Shown here one piece after another: positions 55,721 through 64,000 of a stretch of 64,000 bases of DNA; position 1 is the first letter of the stretch; the number at the start of each line of letters is the position of its first letter. This DNA is from an uncultured Nitrospiraceae bacterium (GTDB lineage Bacteria > Nitrospirota > Thermodesulfovibrionia > Thermodesulfovibrionales > UBA6898), in the NCBI GenBank assembly GCA_963811165.1, contig CAWEQH010000004.1, forward strand, positions 96,001 to 160,000, written 5' to 3'. The position numbers and the translations under genes were made by a program. Under the pieces are notes generated by a model, which saw only the letters and a program-made list of their open reading frames with translations, ran no database searches and was not told where the DNA came from.

Positions 55721-56422
55721 TCAGAGGATACGGCTGTCGAGGCTGAAGACCTGCCCCGTAATGTTTTGCGTGCGCACGATCGACACTACTAGTGCCGCAA
55801 CCTCTGCCGGGTCGGACAAACTGTGCAGCATACTCTTTTCCCTTGCCTGGTCCATTGCCCTGCCGGCCCCTATTCCCATATCGGTCATCATAAATCCGGG
55901 CAGCACGGCGTTGACACGTATGTGATGCACTGCGAGTTCAGCTGCGCAGGTATAGGTGAGCCCGAGGAGGGCCGCTTTTGAAGCGCTATAGGCGGCCTGT
56001 CCGGCTTTTCCCGAAATCCCCGAACGGGAGGAGATATTGACCACGTGTCCACCACCGGATTTTACCATAAGCGGGGCCATAGTCTTAATGATATTGAAGC
56101 AGCCCTTAAGGTTTGTCCCGATGATCGAGTCCCATTCTTTTTCAGACTGCCTGATGAGCAAAGAGTCCTTCGTGATTCCCGCGTTATTTATTACCACATC
56201 GAGTCTGCCCGAAACTTTTTCGACAAAATCGGCCATTGCCCTGACCTGTGCTGCATCTGCGACATCAGCCCTTATAGTACGGCCGACTGATCGGACAAGT
56301 TCGGATACCTCCTTATCGGCCGAAAGATAGTTGGCAAAGACGGTATAGCCGTTTTTTGCAAGCGCAAAGGCGATCTCTTTCCCCAGCCCCCGCGACGCTC
56401 CGGTGACGAGGGCTACCGGCAT
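55721..56422 (-). CDS. SDR oxidoreductase (FabG-like)
   Basis: TGASRGLG, NNAG, YSASK. Confidence 0.9.
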   Translation of the reverse strand: MPVALVTGASRGLGKEIAFALAKNGYTVFANYLSADKEVSELVRSVGRTIRADVADAAQVRAMADFVEKVSGRLDVVINNAGITKDSLLIRQSEKEWDSIIGTNLKGCFNIIKTMAPLMVKSGGGHVVNISSRSGISGKAGQAAYSASKAALLGLTYTCAAELAVHHIRVNAVLPGFMMTDMGIGAGRAMDQAREKSMLHSLSDPAEVAALVVSIVRTQNITGQVFSLDSRIL

Positions 56423-56666
56423 ATGCGGTGTTCCCGGGTGATTACGTCGAACCTATGATTGGTGGTCCTCATTTTGTTCGTTTATGGGTAATCCGGCACA
56501 ATTTGAAAATGGAATGACAGCTTCTAGAACTATCTTTACCGCTACATAGTGTCGGCAAATGTTTTCAGCTTAAAGGCAAATAGATTTTTTCAAGAATAAC
56601 ACATAACGTACTGACAGAAGAAGGGCCGGTCAAAAAAGGCGGGTGTAGCGCAATAGATTTCGGCAC

Positions 56667-56737
56667 AAAAAAAACAGGCAGCCAGGGGGGACTGGCTGCC
56701 TGAAGGAGGGATTCGAAAAAGGGTTTTATTACCCTTG
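56667..56737 (-). ncRNA. candidate small RNA or leader ending in an intrinsic terminator
   Basis: 5' hairpin, single-stranded CCCUCCUU, 11-bp hairpin plus U8; TATGCT just upstream. Confidence 0.4.
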
Positions 56738-56797
56738 TTAGTAGCATAGTGGCAAATATTGAAGAAATTATGAAGGGGTAAAATACCCATCGCGTTC

Positions 56798-56826
56798 TTG
56801 ACAAGCGCCGAGGGTTGCGCGAGAAT
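56798..56826 (+). promoter_or_regulatory. sigma70-type promoter of the ALDH operon
   Basis: TTGACA-N17-GAGAAT. Confidence 0.55.
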
Positions 56827-56878
56827 TTGGGCATGAATCCCCGGTCTTTTTCCGATTTTCTCAAGGGTTGGGAGGTGC

Positions 56879-58372
56879 TTGGTGAAAACGATCGTGAAGA
56901 ATTTCATTGACGGACAATGGGTGGACTCGATTGCCGGGGAGGCCTTCGAACGCATCAACCCGGCGGATACGTCGGAGGTCGTTGCGGTCGTCAGCAGGGC
57001 AGACAGGCCCGACGTCGACACGGCTGTCGGCGCAGCGAAGGCGGCGTTTGGCGGCTGGAGACATACCCCGCCGCCAAAAAGGGGAGAGATACTTTTCAGG
57101 GCGGGCGAGATACTTACGAGGAGGAAAGAAGAACTCGGCGCGCTTATGACCAAGGAGATGGGCAAGGTCCTGCCCGAAGCGCTCGGGGACGTGCAGGAGG
57201 CCATAGACATGGCCTTTTATATGGCGGGGGAAGGCAGAAGGCTTTCAGGTGAAACGATCCCCTCGGAACTTCCCGATAAGGACTGTAAGTCCATACGCGT
57301 GCCCGTTGGGGTATGCGGCCTGATTACGCCCTGGAACTTCCCCATGGCCATACCGGCCTGGAAGATCATGCCTGCCCTTATCTCGGGCAACACTGTGGTT
57401 TTTAAGCCAAGCAGTTACACGCCCGCCTGCGCTTCGAAACTCGTAGAGACATTTCAGGAGGCCGGCCTGCCGAAGGGGGTTTTGAATCTCGTAAACGGCA
57501 GCGGTGAAGGGACCGGGAACTATCTCGCTTCGCATGCCGGCATAGACGCTCTGTCTTTTACGGGTTCGACCGCGGTCGGGCTGGGGATCGCAAAGACCTG
57601 CTCAGAGAACGGCAAGAAGGTATCTTGCGAGATGGGCGGGAAAAACGCCATCATCGTCATGGACGACGCTGACCTGGACCTTGCGGTCGAAGGTGCGATA
57701 TGGGGCGGGTTCGGGACGAGCGGTCAAAGGTGTACGTCGTCAAGCCGCATAGTCGTACACCGGAAGGTCTACGATATGTTCCTTCAGATGTTCTCTGCGG
57801 CCGCATCAAAGCTGAGACTCGGAAACGGACTCGATAAAAATACCGACGTAGGTCCTGTCGTAAACGAGACTCAGATGAAGCGGATACTCGACTTCATAGA
57901 GATCGGAAAGAAAGAAGGGGCCAAAGTGGTAACGGGGGGCAATGCCTGCAGGGAAGGCGAATGCGGGAGAGGATACTTCATCCGGCCTACAATCTTTTCC
58001 GGGGTCGCCCCCGGCATGAGGATCGCGCAGGAGGAGATCTTCGGCCCTGTGGTGGCGGTGATCATGGCAGAGGACCTGCAGGACGCGATACGGATAGTCA
58101 ACGGCACCTCTTACGGACTTGTATCTTCGATATACACGAGGGACGTCAATAAGTCCGCCGTCGCAGAGCGCGAGCTCGATACCGGCATTGTCTATATCAA
58201 TGCCTCAACGATAGGCGCAGAGATCCAGCTTCCCTTCGGCGGGACGAAAAAAAGCGGCTTTGGACATGAAGAGGCCGGAGGAAGGGGGGGCGCCCTCGAT
58301 ATGTTTACTAAGTGGAAGGTGATCTACAGGGACTTCAGCGGCAGGCTCCAGAAGGCCCAGATCGACAGATAA
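56879..58372 (+). CDS. aldehyde dehydrogenase (amino-acid semialdehyde type)
   Basis: PWNFP, FTGS, EMGGKN, GQRCT, EEIFGP. Confidence 0.95.
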   Translation: MVKTIVKNFIDGQWVDSIAGEAFERINPADTSEVVAVVSRADRPDVDTAVGAAKAAFGGWRHTPPPKRGEILFRAGEILTRRKEELGALMTKEMGKVLPEALGDVQEAIDMAFYMAGEGRRLSGETIPSELPDKDCKSIRVPVGVCGLITPWNFPMAIPAWKIMPALISGNTVVFKPSSYTPACASKLVETFQEAGLPKGVLNLVNGSGEGTGNYLASHAGIDALSFTGSTAVGLGIAKTCSENGKKVSCEMGGKNAIIVMDDADLDLAVEGAIWGGFGTSGQRCTSSSRIVVHRKVYDMFLQMFSAAASKLRLGNGLDKNTDVGPVVNETQMKRILDFIEIGKKEGAKVVTGGNACREGECGRGYFIRPTIFSGVAPGMRIAQEEIFGPVVAVIMAEDLQDAIRIVNGTSYGLVSSIYTRDVNKSAVAERELDTGIVYINASTIGAEIQLPFGGTKKSGFGHEEAGGRGGALDMFTKWKVIYRDFSGRLQKAQIDR

Positions 58373-58399
58373 CCGGATGGACAGGAGGTCAACAGCCGC

Positions 58400-59683
58400 A
58401 TGGACGATTATCTGAACAGGGCGAAAGCCGTTTTGACAAACGCGCTCGTCATTCACACCGGGATCGTCGCAAAGAAGGCCCACGGTATTTATGTCGAAGA
58501 TCTTGATGGCAGGAGGTACATGGACTTTACCTCCGGGCTTGCCACCGTAAATATCGGACACAACCACCCCGGCGTCGTCGAGGCGATAAAGAGACAGGCG
58601 GAAGATTTCGTTCATTCCGGGTGCATCTTTTATTACGAACCGCTTATAACGCTTGCCGAGAAGCTAAGGCAAGTGACGCCTCCGGGGATTGATATGTTCT
58701 TCTTCAGCAATTCCGGGGCCGAGGCTGTCGAAGGCGCGATAAAGCTTGCGCGCTATAGCACAGGCCGGCAGGGCATCGTCGCGTTTACCGGAGGGTTCCA
58801 CGGCAGGACCTTCGGTGCAATGAGTCTGACCACATCGAGCATGAGGTACCGAAGGATGTATCACCCCGTGGTCCCCTCGATCTACCACACTCCTTACCCC
58901 TATTGTTTCCGGTGTTTCTTTGGTCAACGGCCGGGCGCCTGCAACATGGATTGTTATACATACCTTGAGAGGCTCTTTAAACATCTCATCCCTCCTGAGG
59001 AAGTGGCCTGCATGATAATCGAACCGGTGCTCGGCGAAGGGGGTTACGTGCCGCCTCCGCCCGAGTTCCTTGCCAGACTCAGGGCCATCTGCGACAAATG
59101 GGGTATACTCCTTGTGCTCGATGAGGTTCAGGCAGGCATGGGAAGGACGGGAAAGTGGTTTGCGTCGGAGCATTTCGGGGTTGTCCCTGACATTATGACC
59201 GTCGCCAAAGGCATCGCCTCGGGCATGCCTCTTAGTGCGGTGGCCGCAAGAAAAGAGATCATGGAGAAATGGCCCAAAGGCGCGCACGGCACGACCTTCG
59301 GAGGCAACCCTGTTTCATGCGCCGCCGCCCTTGCGACAATCGGGATTATAGAGAAAGAGGGTCTTTTAGCAAAGGCCACTCAAACCGGCGGGCATGCCAT
59401 GACAAGATTGAGATCGATAAAGGAGAGGTATCCTGCAATCGGCGACGTAAGGGGACTCGGGCTCATGATAGGCATAGAGTTTGTCACGGCAGCGGGGGAG
59501 GCCGACACAGTGGGTCTTGGCAAAGTGATCCGGAACAGTCTTGAAAAAGGGCTGGTGCTTCTGGACTGCGGGGTTGATAAAAATATCATAAGGCTGGCCC
59601 CGCCGCTCATAGTGAAGAGGGAAGAAATAGATGCGGGACTCGATATATTCGAAGGTGCGCTCAACGCAACGTATGGGGGTTGA
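58400..59683 (+). CDS. class III PLP aminotransferase (GabT/ornithine omega-aminotransferase-like)
   Basis: SGAEAVE, FHGRT, EPVLGEGG, DEVQAGMGRTG, AKG, TFGGNP. Confidence 0.93.
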   Translation: MDDYLNRAKAVLTNALVIHTGIVAKKAHGIYVEDLDGRRYMDFTSGLATVNIGHNHPGVVEAIKRQAEDFVHSGCIFYYEPLITLAEKLRQVTPPGIDMFFFSNSGAEAVEGAIKLARYSTGRQGIVAFTGGFHGRTFGAMSLTTSSMRYRRMYHPVVPSIYHTPYPYCFRCFFGQRPGACNMDCYTYLERLFKHLIPPEEVACMIIEPVLGEGGYVPPPPEFLARLRAICDKWGILLVLDEVQAGMGRTGKWFASEHFGVVPDIMTVAKGIASGMPLSAVAARKEIMEKWPKGAHGTTFGGNPVSCAAALATIGIIEKEGLLAKATQTGGHAMTRLRSIKERYPAIGDVRGLGLMIGIEFVTAAGEADTVGLGKVIRNSLEKGLVLLDCGVDKNIIRLAPPLIVKREEIDAGLDIFEGALNATYGG

Positions 59684-61024
59684 ATGATGAAGAGACAGAA
59701 GGTCCTTATCATGGGTGCCGCCGGCAGGGACTTCCATAACTTCAATATGGTTTACAGGGAGGACCCCTCCTATGAAGTTGCTGCATTTACCGCGGCCCAG
59801 ATACCCTTTATAGGAAGAAGAATGTATCCGGCCACCCTGGCAGGACCTCTTTATCCGGATGGGATCCCGATCTTTCCCGAAGAGGACCTTGCGACGCTTA
59901 TCCATCTGTACGGGATCGGGCAGGTGGTCTTTGCCTACAGTGATGTCACGCACGAACATGTTATGCACAAGGCCTCTCTCTGCCTTTCGCTGGGGACCGA
60001 TTTTGTTCTGCTCGGCCCTGACAAGACAATGCTCGAATCGACACTGCCCGTCATCTCCGTATGTTCGGTAAGGACGGGATGCGGAAAGAGTGGAATGACG
60101 AGATATGTCCTTGGAGTGCTTAAGAAAAGAGGAGTGGTCCCTGTTGCGATACGACATCCGATGCCCTATTGCGACCTGGTAAAAAGCCGCGTGCAGCGGT
60201 TCGGGAAGATGGAAGACCTAGACGACGGGAGCTGCACCATAGAGGAACGCGAAGAATTCGAGCCGCTTATCAGGGCAGGCGTCCCCGTGTACGCCGGGGT
60301 CGATTATCGGGAGGTTTTGAAAGACGCCGAAAAAGAGGCCGGGGTCATTGTATGGGACGGGGGGAACAATGATATGCCCTTTTTAAGGTCCGGGCTTGAA
60401 ATAGTGGTCCTCGACCCTCACCGGCCCGGCCATGAGTTGTCTTTCCATCCGGGTGAAGCCAATTTAAGGAGGGCGGATATAGCGGTTATCAACAAGGTCG
60501 ATACCGCGGACGAGGGAAAGGTGAGAGAGGTCGAAAAAAACATCCGGAAGGTGAACCCGGTAGCGGTCATTGTATATACGACTTCACCCATAAGTGTCGA
60601 CTATCCCGGCAAGATCGCGGGAAAGAAGGTCCTCGTGGTAGAGGACGGACCGACGCTTACCCACGGCGGCATGAAATACGGGGCCGGGTTTCTGGCCGCA
60701 GAGAAATACTCGGCGGCCGAGATTGTCGACCCGCGTCCCTATGCGGTTGGTTCGATCAGAGAGACCCTCGAAAAATATCCCGATCTCAGGAGGGTGTTGC
60801 CTGCGATGGGGTACGCCCCGGAGCAGATAAGAGAACTGAAAGAGACGATAGAGCGCGCGCAGGCAGACCTTGTGCTGGTCGCAACGCCCACCGACCTGCG
60901 CCGGCTGCTGGAGCTTAATAAAGATTCCGTGCGCGTCAGTTACGAAATAGAGGAGCTTGACGGTATGGAGCTGAAAGGGTGCATAGAGGGCTTCATCGAC
61001 AGCCATCTCCATGCTGCGAAATAG
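59684..61024 (+). CDS. COG2403 P-loop protein (cDPG-synthetase-like), candidate arginine synthetase ArcE
   Basis: MGAAGRDFHNFN, AFTAAQIP, VRTGCGKS, RHPMPY, TIEEREE, WDGGNND, EDGPTLTHGGM. Confidence 0.85.
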   Translation: MMKRQKVLIMGAAGRDFHNFNMVYREDPSYEVAAFTAAQIPFIGRRMYPATLAGPLYPDGIPIFPEEDLATLIHLYGIGQVVFAYSDVTHEHVMHKASLCLSLGTDFVLLGPDKTMLESTLPVISVCSVRTGCGKSGMTRYVLGVLKKRGVVPVAIRHPMPYCDLVKSRVQRFGKMEDLDDGSCTIEEREEFEPLIRAGVPVYAGVDYREVLKDAEKEAGVIVWDGGNNDMPFLRSGLEIVVLDPHRPGHELSFHPGEANLRRADIAVINKVDTADEGKVREVEKNIRKVNPVAVIVYTTSPISVDYPGKIAGKKVLVVEDGPTLTHGGMKYGAGFLAAEKYSAAEIVDPRPYAVGSIRETLEKYPDLRRVLPAMGYAPEQIRELKETIERAQADLVLVATPTDLRRLLELNKDSVRVSYEIEELDGMELKGCIEGFIDSHLHAAK

Positions 61025-61091
61025 TGCGATGACATGGCATGGAACATCATTTTTTATTGCCGCCTTAAAGAAATGATTACATCGTTTATGA

Positions 61092-61162
61092 AATCCCTTC
61101 TGCCCTCCCTTTGTCAAAGTGAGGAATAATTCTCCTCTTTGGCAGAAGAGGGGGGAGATTTT
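61092..61162. repeat. degenerate palindromic repeat (CCCTTTG..AAAG.G type)
   Basis: Resembles the CCCCTTGATAAGGGG palindromes at 9800-9870. Confidence 0.5.
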
Positions 61163-61188
61163 CTCATTCATGTGATACCCTTGATAGT

Positions 61189-62148
61189 ATGAACGGCACT
61201 GGGCGATACAGATTGTGCGTCGTTTCCCTTGGCGGCAACGCCCTGATAAGGAGGGGCGAGGAGGGCACAATCGAAGAACAGTTCGCACATACTCGCGCAT
61301 GCACGTCGCAGCTGTCACGTATGGTCAGGGACGGGTTCAGGATAGTAATTACCCATGGAAACGGCCCGATCGTCGGAAACATCGTAATCCGAAACGAAGC
61401 GGCGAAGAACACGGTCCCCCCCATGCCCCTTTATATCTGCGACGCCGACTCGGAGGGCGGCATCGGCTACATGATCCAGCAGACACTCTATAACAGCCTC
61501 AGAGGCATTCGGGAGGTGCGTGGCGTGGTCACGGTCATCACCCAGGTCGTTGTCGACAAGAAAGACCGTGCCTTTGAAATACCGTCAAAACCGATAGGAC
61601 CCTTCTACACTGAGGACGAGGCGGCCGAACTGGAAAAGTCGAGGGGGTGGATCTTGAGGGAAGACAGCGGCAGAGGCTATAGAAGGGTTGTCCCGTCGCC
61701 CCGGCCGAAGAAGATAATCGAGACGGAGGTCATCAGGCAGCTCACTCAATCTGGCGTCATTACGATCGCGGCCGGAGGGGGCGGCGTACCGGTCGTCGAA
61801 CTGGCATCGGGCGATCTTCAGGGAGTGGATGCGGTTGTGGACAAGGACCTTGCGAGCAGTCTCCTTGCGATGGATCTGGGTGCCGAATGTTTCATCAACC
61901 TTACCCAGGTCGACAACGTCTACCTCGATTACGGAAGGGCCGGCCAGAGGGCGCTTCGTGATGTCGGTCTGGAAGAGATCAGCGCGTACTACGAGCAGGG
62001 CCATTTTCCGCCGGGAAGCATGGGACCGAAGATAGAGGCGGCCATCGAGTTTCTTCGTGCCGGAGGTAAAGAAGTGATCATCACGACCCCGGAACTTGTC
62101 GGAGAAGCGATGCAGGGAAGGGCAGGGACGAGGCTAAGGGCGACTTGA
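61189..62148 (+). CDS. arcC: carbamate kinase
   Basis: LGGNAL, THGNGP, KPIGPFY, RRVVPSP, GGGGVP, VDKD, GSMGPK. Confidence 0.96.
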   Translation: MNGTGRYRLCVVSLGGNALIRRGEEGTIEEQFAHTRACTSQLSRMVRDGFRIVITHGNGPIVGNIVIRNEAAKNTVPPMPLYICDADSEGGIGYMIQQTLYNSLRGIREVRGVVTVITQVVVDKKDRAFEIPSKPIGPFYTEDEAAELEKSRGWILREDSGRGYRRVVPSPRPKKIIETEVIRQLTQSGVITIAAGGGGVPVVELASGDLQGVDAVVDKDLASSLLAMDLGAECFINLTQVDNVYLDYGRAGQRALRDVGLEEISAYYEQGHFPPGSMGPKIEAAIEFLRAGGKEVIITTPELVGEAMQGRAGTRLRAT

Positions 62149-62219
62149 TTACGTTTTCAAATGCCGGATAATTAGTGTAGGGTGTACTATTTATGACCAT
62201 ATGAAGGGAGAATTGAAGG

Positions 62220-63081
62220 ATGCCTAAGAAGACAGAAACTCATGCACGGCTGACAAAGGACGAAAGGGCCTTTTCGTTCATTGCGCTCAATGACCGGGAA
62301 GGTAAACCGAGGAAACAGGGTATTACGGAGATGAGAGGCCCATACTATACGCCCATGGGAAAGCGCTATCTTGAAGACATCCTTGAGACCATGGGGGCTT
62401 ATGTCGATATCCTTAAGTTTGCGGGAGGGTCCTTCAGTCTCATGCCCCGCAAAGCGGTAAAGGAACTCATCGATCTATGCCACAGGTACGATGTGCAGGT
62501 CGACACGGGAGGCTTTATCGAGCATGTGCTTACGCTCGGTGCAGGCATGGTCGATCGCTATATCGAGGAATGCAGGAGCCTTGAATTCGATATAGTCGAG
62601 ATATCGGGCGGCTTTCTGAGTATCCCCGCAGATGACCTTGTCCGTATAACCGAAAAAGTGCGGAAAAGGGGGATGAAGCCCAAAGCCGAGGTGGGCATCC
62701 AGTTCGGTGCAGGGGGAGCGAGCACGGTCGGGGAACTCGAGGCCGAAGGGACAGGGGATGTCGACTGGGCGGTCATGAGGGCGAAGAAGCATCTCGATGC
62801 CGGCGCATATATGATCATGATCGAATCAGAGGGCATAACAGAAAGCGTCAACACCTGGAGGACGGATGTGATCTCCAAATTCATCCGGGAGCTGGGGATC
62901 GAAAAGACGATGTTCGAGGCCGCTGACCCGGAGGTGTTCAACTGGTATATCAAAAACTACGGGCCGGAAATGAATCTTTTTGTCGACCATAGCCAGATCG
63001 TGCTTCTTGAATCCCTGAGGTCGGGCATCTGGGGGACGAAAAAACCTCTGGGGAAGGGTGTTGACCTATAAAGGCCGCTAA
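62220..63081 (+). CDS. phosphosulfolactate synthase (ComA family); +1 A near 63040 shifts the last codons
   Basis: KPRKQGITEMRGPYY, LKFAGGS, MIESEGITE, NLFVDHSQ; corrected tail WGTKNLWGRVLTYK. Confidence 0.88.
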
Positions 63082-63191
63082 GAAAGTCCGACCAAGGAGG
63101 GGACTATCTTCTCGCTCATTCAAAACGAAACATAGAAAGGCGGGAGAATACCATATCCCGCCTTATTGACCGAGTTTGTGAATAATCCTGG

Positions 63192-64000
63192 TTAGACAAA
63201 AAGGCTTACTACTGCCCCTGTCATGCAGGTGGCCAATGTCCCGGCCACAAGCGCCTTGATGCCGAGGGAGACCACTTCGGTCCTTCGATCAGGGACCATG
63301 CTGCCGAGTCCTCCGATCAGTATCCCGAGGCTCCCGAAGTTGGCAAAGCTGCACAGGGCATACGTCATGATAAGTCGGGACCGCGGGCTGAGCAGGGTTG
63401 CGGGGGTCTTTGCGAGTTCAATAAACGCAAGCAATTCGTTAAGGATGGTCTTTGTGCCCATCAGATACCCTGCTGTCTGCGCTTCCGCCCACGGGATGCC
63501 GAAAAGCCAGACGATGGGGGCCATGATATACCCCAGGAGCATCTGCAGTGTGACCGCCCTGCCGCCTGCCGGGGGGAGAAGGCCGAGCCCCTGATTTACG
63601 AGGTTGACCAAAGCGACGGCGACGATGAGCATAGCCACTATATTAATTAGGAGAGTGAGTCCGTCAAGGGTCCCTTTTGCGATTGCATCCATAGGGCTCT
63701 TTGCTGTCTGCTCCGGCGCAAGCATCCCGGCAGTCTGTGCGCTGGTCTCAGGTATCATGATCCGTGAGACGGTTATCGCTGCGGGGATATGGATGAGTGA
63801 AGCCGTCAGGATATGCCCCAGAGGGTCGGGGATGATGCCTTTGAGGATCGTGGAATAGAGCACCATAACAGTGCCCGCTATCGAAGCCATGCCGCAGGCC
63901 ATCAGGGAAAAGAGTTCGCTCCTTGTCATCTCGCGAAGGTATGGTTTGATCAGAAGCGGGGCTTCCACCATGCCAAGAAAGATCGTGGTCGATGCGCCCA
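63192..64000 (-). CDS. concentrative nucleoside transporter (NupC/CNT), 5' end outside the window
   Basis: GMVEAPL, GMASIAG, LNELLAF, YALCSFANFGS. Confidence 0.92.
   Translation of the reverse strand, partial: GASTTIFLGMVEAPLLIKPYLREMTRSELFSLMACGMASIAGTVMVLYSTILKGIIPDPLGHILTASLIHIPAAITVSRIMIPETSAQTAGMLAPEQTAKSPMDAIAKGTLDGLTLLINIVAMLIVAVALVNLVNQGLGLLPPAGGRAVTLQMLLGYIMAPIVWLFGIPWAEAQTAGYLMGTKTILNELLAFIELAKTPATLLSPRSRLIMTYALCSFANFGSLGILIGGLGSMVPDRRTEVVSLGIKALVAGTLATCMTGAVVSLFV

Follow-up and report, generated by a model that had tools for sequence, protein, structure and literature searches.

The window analysed here is a stretch of 64,000 nucleotides from an uncultured Nitrospiraceae bacterium (assembly GCA_963811165.1, contig CAWEQH010000004.1, positions 96,001 to 160,000; genome completeness 95.4%), and towards its end lie four genes predicted to form one putative operon for the energy-conserving breakdown of arginine. 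The original prediction described four co-oriented genes, of which the second, for an aminotransferase, and the third, which it called a COG2403 member, abut; all four open reading frames do lie on the + strand, and the TGA of the aminotransferase gene stands directly at the ATG of gene 3. The genes and the elements around them are as follows.

56798..56826, + strand: promoter-like site of the sigma70 type (TTGACA-17-GAGAAT), conserved in same-family loci
56815-56822, + strand: TTGCG[CG]GA block over the −10 region, a putative operator, in 8/8 same-family loci
56879..58372, + strand: aldehyde dehydrogenase (ALDH; PF00171) with an ALDH7/ALDH4-like site
58400..59683, + strand: class III omega-aminotransferase (PF00202; PRK08117, 626.4 over a cut-off of 574)
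59684..61024, + strand: ArcE, of the arginine synthetase/ATP-forming arginine deiminase family, a P-loop protein of 446 aa (gene 3)
61130..61157, + strand: GC-rich hairpin with a weak T-tail in the arcE-arcC gap, a putative attenuating or stabilising element
61189..62148, + strand: carbamate kinase ArcC (TIGR00746, 383.9 bits over a cut-off of 358.25)
62220..63071, + strand: comA-like gene of the phosphosulfolactate synthase family (PF02679; TIGR03849, 88.8, under 280)

The reading that we prefer, with a probability of roughly 0.6, is that arginine is converted to citrulline with formation of ATP, citrulline to ornithine by the housekeeping ornithine carbamoyltransferase (OTC), and ornithine to glutamate; the direction, the use of OTC and the ornithine-to-glutamate half are what we infer.

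The product of gene 3

ArcE was described as TK2200 of Thermococcus kodakarensis, which catalyses the reaction Arg + ADP + Pi -> citrulline + NH3 + ATP (Michimori 2024, PMC11032458), and bacterial homologues, Nitrospira included, are already listed in that paper. Gene 3 encodes a member of the ArcE family, and by analogy with TK2200 its product likely forms citrulline and ATP from arginine. As stand-ins for TK2200 we used Thermococcus/Thermococci loci that match the core of primer TK2200R (five loci with four full-length proteins); in all five the match is the 3' end of a gene 3 relative, and one locus (L034) starts with the peptide encoded by primer TK2200F. Compared with the four full-length orthologues, gene 3 has an identity of 60-61% (544-560 bits), as against 22-27% local identity to Thermococcus cyclic 2,3-diphosphoglycerate synthetase (cDPGS). 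With 446 aa and E = 0 against the four orthologues it lies, by this proxy, within the published thresholds for ArcE homologues (BLASTP E < 1e-100, length > 380 aa; PMC11032458, Fig. S10 legend). It retains 117 of the 121 columns that are invariant in 24 references (4 Thermococcus and 20 OTC-adjacent proteins), the four non-matching columns being variable inside the cluster clade, and it carries the motifs GAAGRDFHNFN (11-21), RTGCGKS (the P-loop, 130-136), TIEEREE (185-191), WDGGNND (224-230) and EDGPTLTHG (320-328). Trees (FastTree, 129 rows; quick IQ-TREE, 39 rows) put gene 3 with ArcE and apart from cDPGS, with a support of 100 on the separating branch; one of the three cDPGS outgroup proteins was verified as cDPGS and is encoded next to 2-phosphoglycerate kinase (2PGK). 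The ArcEs of the cluster lie outside the group formed by the Thermococcus and OTC-adjacent proteins (support 95), but as the outgroup is long and the sample biased to top matches, this basal placement was not used to order events.

In the source databases proteins of this kind are named cDPGS or GTPase, and the fold would agree, as the AlphaFold model of gene 3 (pLDDT 93.3) has cDPGS and LpxK as its nearest folds, with cDPGS at Foldseek rank 1 (14% identity). PMC11032458 itself likens ArcE to LpxK. At the level of sequence, however, this reading is refuted and we leave it virtually no chance: gene 3 matches solved cDPGS with an E of 1.5e-4 where a true cDPGS member gives 1e-114 to 1e-187, its identity to ArcE is far higher, the trees separate it, and tblastn with 2PGK and cDPGS gave no match in the genome at E 1e-4. 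No solved ArcE is among the PDB matches of gene 3, and no model of Pfam or NCBIfam exceeds its cut-off. The identification as ArcE made in the original prediction is thus upheld, and the label on ArcE relatives is a widespread mislabel, corrected here. Of the outcomes which that prediction named as refuting it, the three open to computation (grouping with cDPGS, a genome devoid of carbamoyltransferase, a cluster that is not conserved) did not occur. As a separate observation, one ArcE-matching protein (P0126, 766 aa) begins like a carbamate kinase and matches ArcE over residues 328-756, and is an apparent ArcC-ArcE fusion.

Conservation of the cluster and the carbamoyl transfer step

arcE is present in 14 of 41 relatives and in 33 of 301 genomes of the phylum (the samples overlap). 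Among 44 distinct Nitrospirota arcE loci, several of them cut by contig ends, ALDH and aminotransferase genes accompany arcE in 22, spread over six families, and all four genes occur in 15, so that the four-gene cluster is conserved beyond the window; as kin are not independent, these counts are descriptive and carry no statistical test. In the 41 relatives 12 of the 13 genomes with this aminotransferase have arcE, the remaining one being a 66%-complete genome in which the contig ends inside the gene, and all 10 genomes with arcC have arcE. Seven of the 22 ALDH-aminotransferase-arcE loci have no arcC (one of these is truncated by the end of its contig), and in 4 of the 14 arcE genomes a search of the whole genome turned up none. 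With arcC in 15 of the 22 loci, the stable unit is ALDH-aminotransferase-arcE, and arcC, with its second ATP, is dispensable. The proposal that arginine yields ATP twice requires carbamate kinase and is not fully supported; in the window's genome a single arcC was found, the one of this locus. In one relative (L022:8962-8140, genome G003) arcC aligns as two pieces in different frames, which suggests a frameshift or decay and is in line with dispensability. Loci of family f28 (L156-L160, L164, L167) have arcE with no arcC, OTC, ALDH or aminotransferase gene nearby; downstream of most of them are genes which, judged by their N-terminal sequence, we take to be PolX-like and malic enzyme-like.

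Beyond these loci we considered the best 80 of at least 591 confirmed metagenomic arcE loci. Carbamate kinase genes occur in 25 of these, OTC matches in 21, and aminotransferase and ALDH genes in five each, so that most carry neither of the last two. Four related loci have a 54-59%-identical ALDH directly before arcE; one of them (L123) holds this ALDH, of the same subfamily, together with arcE, arcC and a curated (TIGR01885) ornithine aminotransferase, and in L078 a curated (TIGR01236) glutamate-semialdehyde dehydrogenase directly precedes arcE. In L116 RocD follows arcE-OTC-arcC. It may be added that in both L116 and L119 arcE-OTC-arcC is succeeded by genes for a PyrB-like protein and for an aminotransferase of the RocD type; such an arrangement would connect the breakdown of arginine with the synthesis of pyrimidines as well as with ornithine catabolism.

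The original prediction found neither arcA nor a carbamoyltransferase in the window and expected the missing step to come from elsewhere. The genome has two carbamoyltransferases, PyrB and a single OTC (TIGR00658, 410.4 over 280.85), the latter unlinked to the operon and encoded directly after argD on another contig (argD-argF, C10). A PF02274 search for arginine deiminase (arcA) gave nothing in the 95.4%-complete genome, and in the 32 arcE genomes there was one match, a partial one. OTC and carbamate kinase are thus present and arginine deiminase was not found, which is the gene set of the arginine synthetase pathway. The T. kodakarensis pathway genes are likewise distant by locus tag (TK2200, TK0871, TK2158; PMC11032458), and since the sole OTC is unlinked here too, the missing carbamoyl transfer is most likely the work of the housekeeping enzyme, as in T. 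kodakarensis. By PF00185 matches typed by score (family HMMs were run on the window's genome only), 29 of the 32 arcE genomes have two carbamoyltransferases and three have three matches, with a possible second OTC in G318 and pieces in G099 and G044; in G011 just a fragment of OTC is seen. Bypass of the OTC step by a citrulline ureidase is possible; the genome has three nitrilase-family matches, and the one stand-alone protein among them has a nitrilase model as its best match, with a score short of the cut-off.

Several of these results weigh against the preferred route. OTC is linked to arcE in 0 of the 44 Nitrospirota loci (versus 21 of the best 80 others), a second, catabolic OTC is seen in none of the 32 arcE genomes except possibly G318, the only OTC of the window's genome sits in a biosynthetic setting after argD, and arcC is inconstant across loci and genomes. 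A PutA able to oxidise glutamate semialdehyde (GSA) is already encoded in the genome. No arginine/ornithine transporter and no ArgR was linked to the operon or found in the genome, where the candidate transport genes comprise two APC-family matches and, unlinked to the operon, an ABC system for polar amino acids. Cyanophycin as an arginine store was also looked for, and 0 of 25 genomes exceed the TIGR02068 cut-off.

The absence of linked OTC would also suit an ArcE clade acting on homoarginine or 4-guanidinobutyrate, with lysine or 4-aminobutyrate (GABA) as the product for the two upstream enzymes; if true, this would be an undescribed ATP-forming catabolic route and a second activity in the ArcE family. 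The placement of the cluster ArcEs (support 95) and an aminotransferase site that is atypical for ornithine (see below) fit with this, and neither compound is among those tried on TK2200 in PMC11032458, where TK2200 is active on L-arginine and inactive on D-arginine, agmatine, guanidine and two dipeptides. We nevertheless consider it improbable. Gene 3 keeps 117 of the 121 invariant residues and all motifs, no extra transcarbamylase for another ureido compound was found although arcC is present in 15 of the 22 loci, and Nitrospirota arcE loci that lack the two upstream genes lack OTC equally, so that non-linkage of OTC looks like a habit of the lineage. Agmatine, which the original prediction had also entertained, is disfavoured as a substrate: TK2200 rejects it, and with no extra transcarbamylase there was also no agmatine deiminase (or arginase) found in the genome; agmatine deiminase was found in 0/5 genomes searched.

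A further alternative is that ArcE and ArcC work in the synthetic direction and make arginine from free ammonia on ornithine supplied by the aminotransferase. The equilibrium would allow it, as the ArcE reaction runs both ways (Keq about 10) and yielded arginine from citrulline and ammonia in vivo (PMC11032458). However, argG, carB, argD and argF are all present in the genome (argG in 24/25 and carB in 5/5 genomes tested), the presence of ArgG/ArgH was taken to imply a catabolic ArcE (Michimori 2024, PMC11032458), and in T. kodakarensis carbamate kinase could not replace carbamoyl phosphate synthetase (CPS; PMC13260591). These points, together with an ALDH downstream of the transamination, make the synthetic direction very improbable. 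Oxidation by a non-phosphorylating ALDH is, as a matter of general biochemistry, effectively irreversible toward the acid.

The two upstream enzymes and the flanking sequences

We predict that the aminotransferase is an ornithine and/or lysine omega-transaminase, its substrate being putative, and that the ALDH is a glutamate-5-semialdehyde and/or aminoadipate-semialdehyde dehydrogenase. The residues expected of an omega-transaminase are intact in the former (R136, E213, D241, K270, T299 and R398) and comprise the PLP lysine and aspartate, the substrate-carboxylate Arg and the Glu-Arg switch. Its specificity is less readily read. The best PDB scores are nearly equal for an ornithine aminotransferase (349.7; 7vno, which from its entry name we take to be PH1423), a racemase (346.6) and a GABA aminotransferase (330.6), and where PH1423 is said to anchor the alpha-amino group of ornithine with Thr92/Asp93 (numbering checked by alignment) the operon protein has Cys75-Ile76, so that the pair is missing. 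The roles of the human-equivalent residues, Tyr55/Tyr85 of human-type ornithine aminotransferase (OAT) among them, are described in PMC13327489, where Tyr versus Ile at position 85 separates ornithine from GABA use; the operon protein has Ala15/Leu47 in these columns. In a quick tree, whose deep branches are unresolved, it falls outside the PH1423 and RocD clades. These four results count against the ornithine step of the preferred route. A RocD-type ornithine aminotransferase was rejected as a candidate identity (TIGR01885 falls outside the best 25 models, to which the NCBIfam results for both upstream enzymes refer; no Tyr55/Tyr85; separate clade), as was an orthologue of the PH1423/TK2101 type (PRK05769, 529.3 under 552, as against 693.7 for the Thermococcus PH1423-like protein; no Thr-Asp pair; separate clade). 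The genome has four class III aminotransferases, none RocD-like. Three cluster aminotransferases of family f25 have a Ser-Asp pair that aligns with the Thr-Asp pair of PH1423 or is displaced from it by one column, and a Deinococcus protein that belongs to the PH1423 family and is 46.5% identical to the operon enzyme adjoins a glutamate-semialdehyde dehydrogenase. As the enzyme is of neither the RocD nor the PH1423 type and lacks the known ornithine alpha-amino anchors, the ornithine step is drawn from gene neighbourhood, and lysine or GABA-type substrates are possible.

The ALDH gives a clearer picture at its active site than in whole-sequence scores, which count against the expected function: its best model is alpha-ketoglutaric semialdehyde dehydrogenase, under cut-off, and it is also under the curated cut-offs of PRK03137 (444/648), TIGR01237 (420.3/659.65) and NF050084 (370.8/730). 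Its nearest solved relative is Thermus TtALDH530 (6fjx/6fku; PMC8160307), and ALDH7A1 is not among the top PDB matches. The substrate-site residues of ALDH7A1 are numbered in PMC11362210 and PMC13162559, with a Glu that binds the alpha-amino group, and all eleven are identical in the operon ALDH at steady offsets of 14, 17 and 15, by a mapping on motif and numbering made without direct alignment to the human sequence: E107, N153, F154, W161, R284, C285, T286, G446, A447, I449 and F453 (numbers counted from 56879). The site thus has the alpha-amino-binding Glu, a basic residue before the catalytic Cys, a Gly-Ala/Ser anchor loop and an aromatic box, and its E, R, C, T and G do not vary among the 21 distinct subfamily ALDHs linked to arcE that were aligned. 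E107, the counterpart of the alpha-amino-binding Glu, is common to 1-pyrroline-5-carboxylate (P5C) dehydrogenases and absent from the genome's paralogue resembling succinate-semialdehyde dehydrogenase (SSADH), and its presence favours an alpha-amino-acid semialdehyde, from ornithine or lysine, as the substrate. On the other side, a 47%-identical ALDH on a Bacillus plasmid, unlinked to arcE and beside an annotated gabT, shares the site residues. Of the proposal that ornithine is transaminated and oxidised to glutamate by these two enzymes, the second half is therefore consistent with the ALDH site, which fits glutamate semialdehyde, and the first is its weaker part, as the aminotransferase is without the known ornithine anchors.

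Two alternatives leave ArcE and its partner on arginine and change what follows. In one the upstream enzymes serve mainly to take lysine through aminoadipate semialdehyde to 2-aminoadipate, ornithine would be no more than a minor substrate, and P5C is left to PutA, which the genome already holds. The ALDH site matches ALDH7A1, including the Ala at the anchor that is said to favour aminoadipate, and PH1423 and TK2101 accept both L-Orn and L-Lys (table in PMC9986279). However, bacterial P5C dehydrogenases also have Ala at the anchor and two cluster ALDHs have Ser, L123 pairs the same ALDH subfamily with a RocD-type enzyme, and both the NF050084 score and the PDB ranking speak against an ALDH7A1 orthologue; we regard lysine as an unlikely main substrate, to be kept in view. 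In the other, ornithine is decarboxylated to putrescine and the two enzymes are a putrescine/GABA pair leading to succinate, which we think rather unlikely, and somewhat more so. The aliphatic, GABA-aminotransferase-like residue at the Tyr85 position, the lack of a known alpha-amino anchor and the Bacillus gabT neighbour point this way, and a second fold-type-III decarboxylase in the genome is a likely candidate for an ornithine decarboxylase (PF01276 decarboxylases occur in 2/11 genomes, the window's not among them). That decarboxylase is, however, paired with spermidine synthase, a biosynthetic setting; the ALDH keeps the alpha-amino Glu, and plant ALDH7 is reported to bind aminobutanal poorly; a separate SSADH-like ALDH is present in the genome; and the f25 cluster aminotransferases keep their Ser-Asp pair near the PH1423 Thr-Asp position.

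As to expression, the single TTGACA promoter of the original prediction is present and, together with the TTGCG[CG]GA block, recurs at a similar distance in 8/8 same-family loci and in 0/11 cluster loci of other families; by count alone it is weak, as 10 such sites were found versus 5.9 +/- 2.5 in shuffles, which is not significant. A strict pattern made from the conserved sites has 2 matches genome-wide, and a regulon search of the genome gave no convincing second site. The block is possibly an operator for a regulator other than ArgR, which was found in 0 of the 5 genomes searched. The more likely start of the ALDH is GTG 56882 rather than 56879, lying 6 nt after GGGAGG and replaced by ATG in the closest relative. 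The hairpin lies in the arcE-arcC gap of 164 nt and should be seen against 16 terminator-like sites counted versus 9.1 +/- 2.7 in shuffles. The comA-like gene, co-oriented and beginning 71 nt after arcC, is probably outside the pathway, with no apparent link to arginine. A comA gene is downstream of the cluster in 7/44 loci and directly follows arcE in G001 and G040, where arcC is missing; with 78-95% identity it exceeds the operon enzymes in conservation; after comA in L021, L023 and L028 come genes that are presumably methylisocitrate lyase-like and methylcitrate dehydratase-like.

Upstream of the operon and pointing away from it there is likely a small RNA of ~70 nt (56734-56667, minus strand), with a promoter-like −10 at about 56743-56738 on the same strand. 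It would begin with a hairpin at the 5' side, leave a C-rich stretch resembling an anti-Shine-Dalgarno sequence (56710-56703) unpaired, and end in a terminator of 11 pairs followed by a U-run. Some 110 nt show 87-88% conservation in the relatives L020, L021 and L023; these three have in common a change of C-G to U-A on both sides of the stem, possibly a single event. It is a single-copy element in the genome and has no Rfam match; a search of 56000-63300 gave none at E 0.1.

The proposed route and its relation to known systems

In the preferred route ArcE would convert arginine, ADP and Pi to citrulline, NH3 and ATP, as TK2200 does; the unlinked OTC, used in reverse, would phosphorolyse citrulline to ornithine and carbamoyl phosphate; and ArcC would turn the latter into a second ATP. 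In genomes that lack arcC the carbamoyl phosphate may go to pyrimidine or hydrogenase synthesis, both of which it supplies in T. kodakarensis when formed by ArcE/ArcB (Michimori 2026, PMC13260591). The aminotransferase would then shift the delta-amino group of ornithine to 2-oxoglutarate, the weakest of the steps, and oxidation of glutamate semialdehyde to glutamate by the ALDH would pull the route toward breakdown. The net result would be Arg + 2-oxoglutarate -> 2 Glu + 2 NH3 + CO2 + 2 ATP + NAD(P)H, with no export of ornithine. A futile cycle was raised in Michimori 2026 (PMC13260591), and as this host keeps argG and carB, whereas T. kodakarensis is without CPS and argG, the bacterium runs that risk, unlike the archaeon.

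If this is true, Nitrospirota would recover the four nitrogens of arginine and up to 2 ATP without exporting ornithine, and the sharing of OTC between breakdown and biosynthesis would raise a question of futile-cycle control. Substrates would be assigned to the PRK08117 aminotransferases and to the TtALDH-like ALDH group, both uncharacterised subfamilies, and the cluster would provide a compact bacterial test set for ArcE. In the literature, with most subscription papers outside our reach, we found neither a description of such an operon nor an assay of any bacterial ArcE, the ArcE experiments found being from T. kodakarensis only. The underlying chemistry has been published before, and neither half of the route is unfamiliar; the operon extends a known pathway and is no new kind of system.

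The closest known system is the T. kodakarensis pathway (ArcE TK2200, OTC TK0871, carbamate kinase TK2158 and ornithine omega-aminotransferase TK2101; PMC11032458, PMC13260591). There too an enzyme of the ArcE family takes the place of arginine deiminase, a carbamate kinase is present, the one OTC is unlinked, and an omega-aminotransferase acts after ornithine. It differs in that the bacterial genes are clustered, that the ALDH points to glutamate whereas the archaeal route takes ornithine to proline, that the bacterial host keeps argG and carB and often loses arcC, and that the bacterial aminotransferase is of PRK08117 rather than of the PRK05769 family of the PH1423 orthologue. cDPGS (8ORU, 8ORK, 9SXB) lends gene 3 its fold and its database label, but gene 3 is a distant paralogue on a separate long branch, with no 2PGK partner found. 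ALDH7A1 and ALDH4A1 have the alpha-amino Glu and carboxylate anchors that the operon ALDH keeps, but by whole-sequence score the latter is an orthologue of neither. With the arcABC(D) systems the locus has in common carbamate kinase and, as predicted intermediates, citrulline and carbamoyl phosphate; it is without arcA, linked arcB and antiporter, and ornithine is predicted to be consumed, not exported. The arginase (roc) pathway of Bacillus consists of RocF, RocD and RocA and likewise uses an aminotransferase and an aldehyde dehydrogenase to take ornithine through GSA to glutamate, but here no arginase was found, the operon enzymes are not RocD/RocA orthologues, and ornithine is predicted to arise through ArcE and OTC with a gain of ATP.

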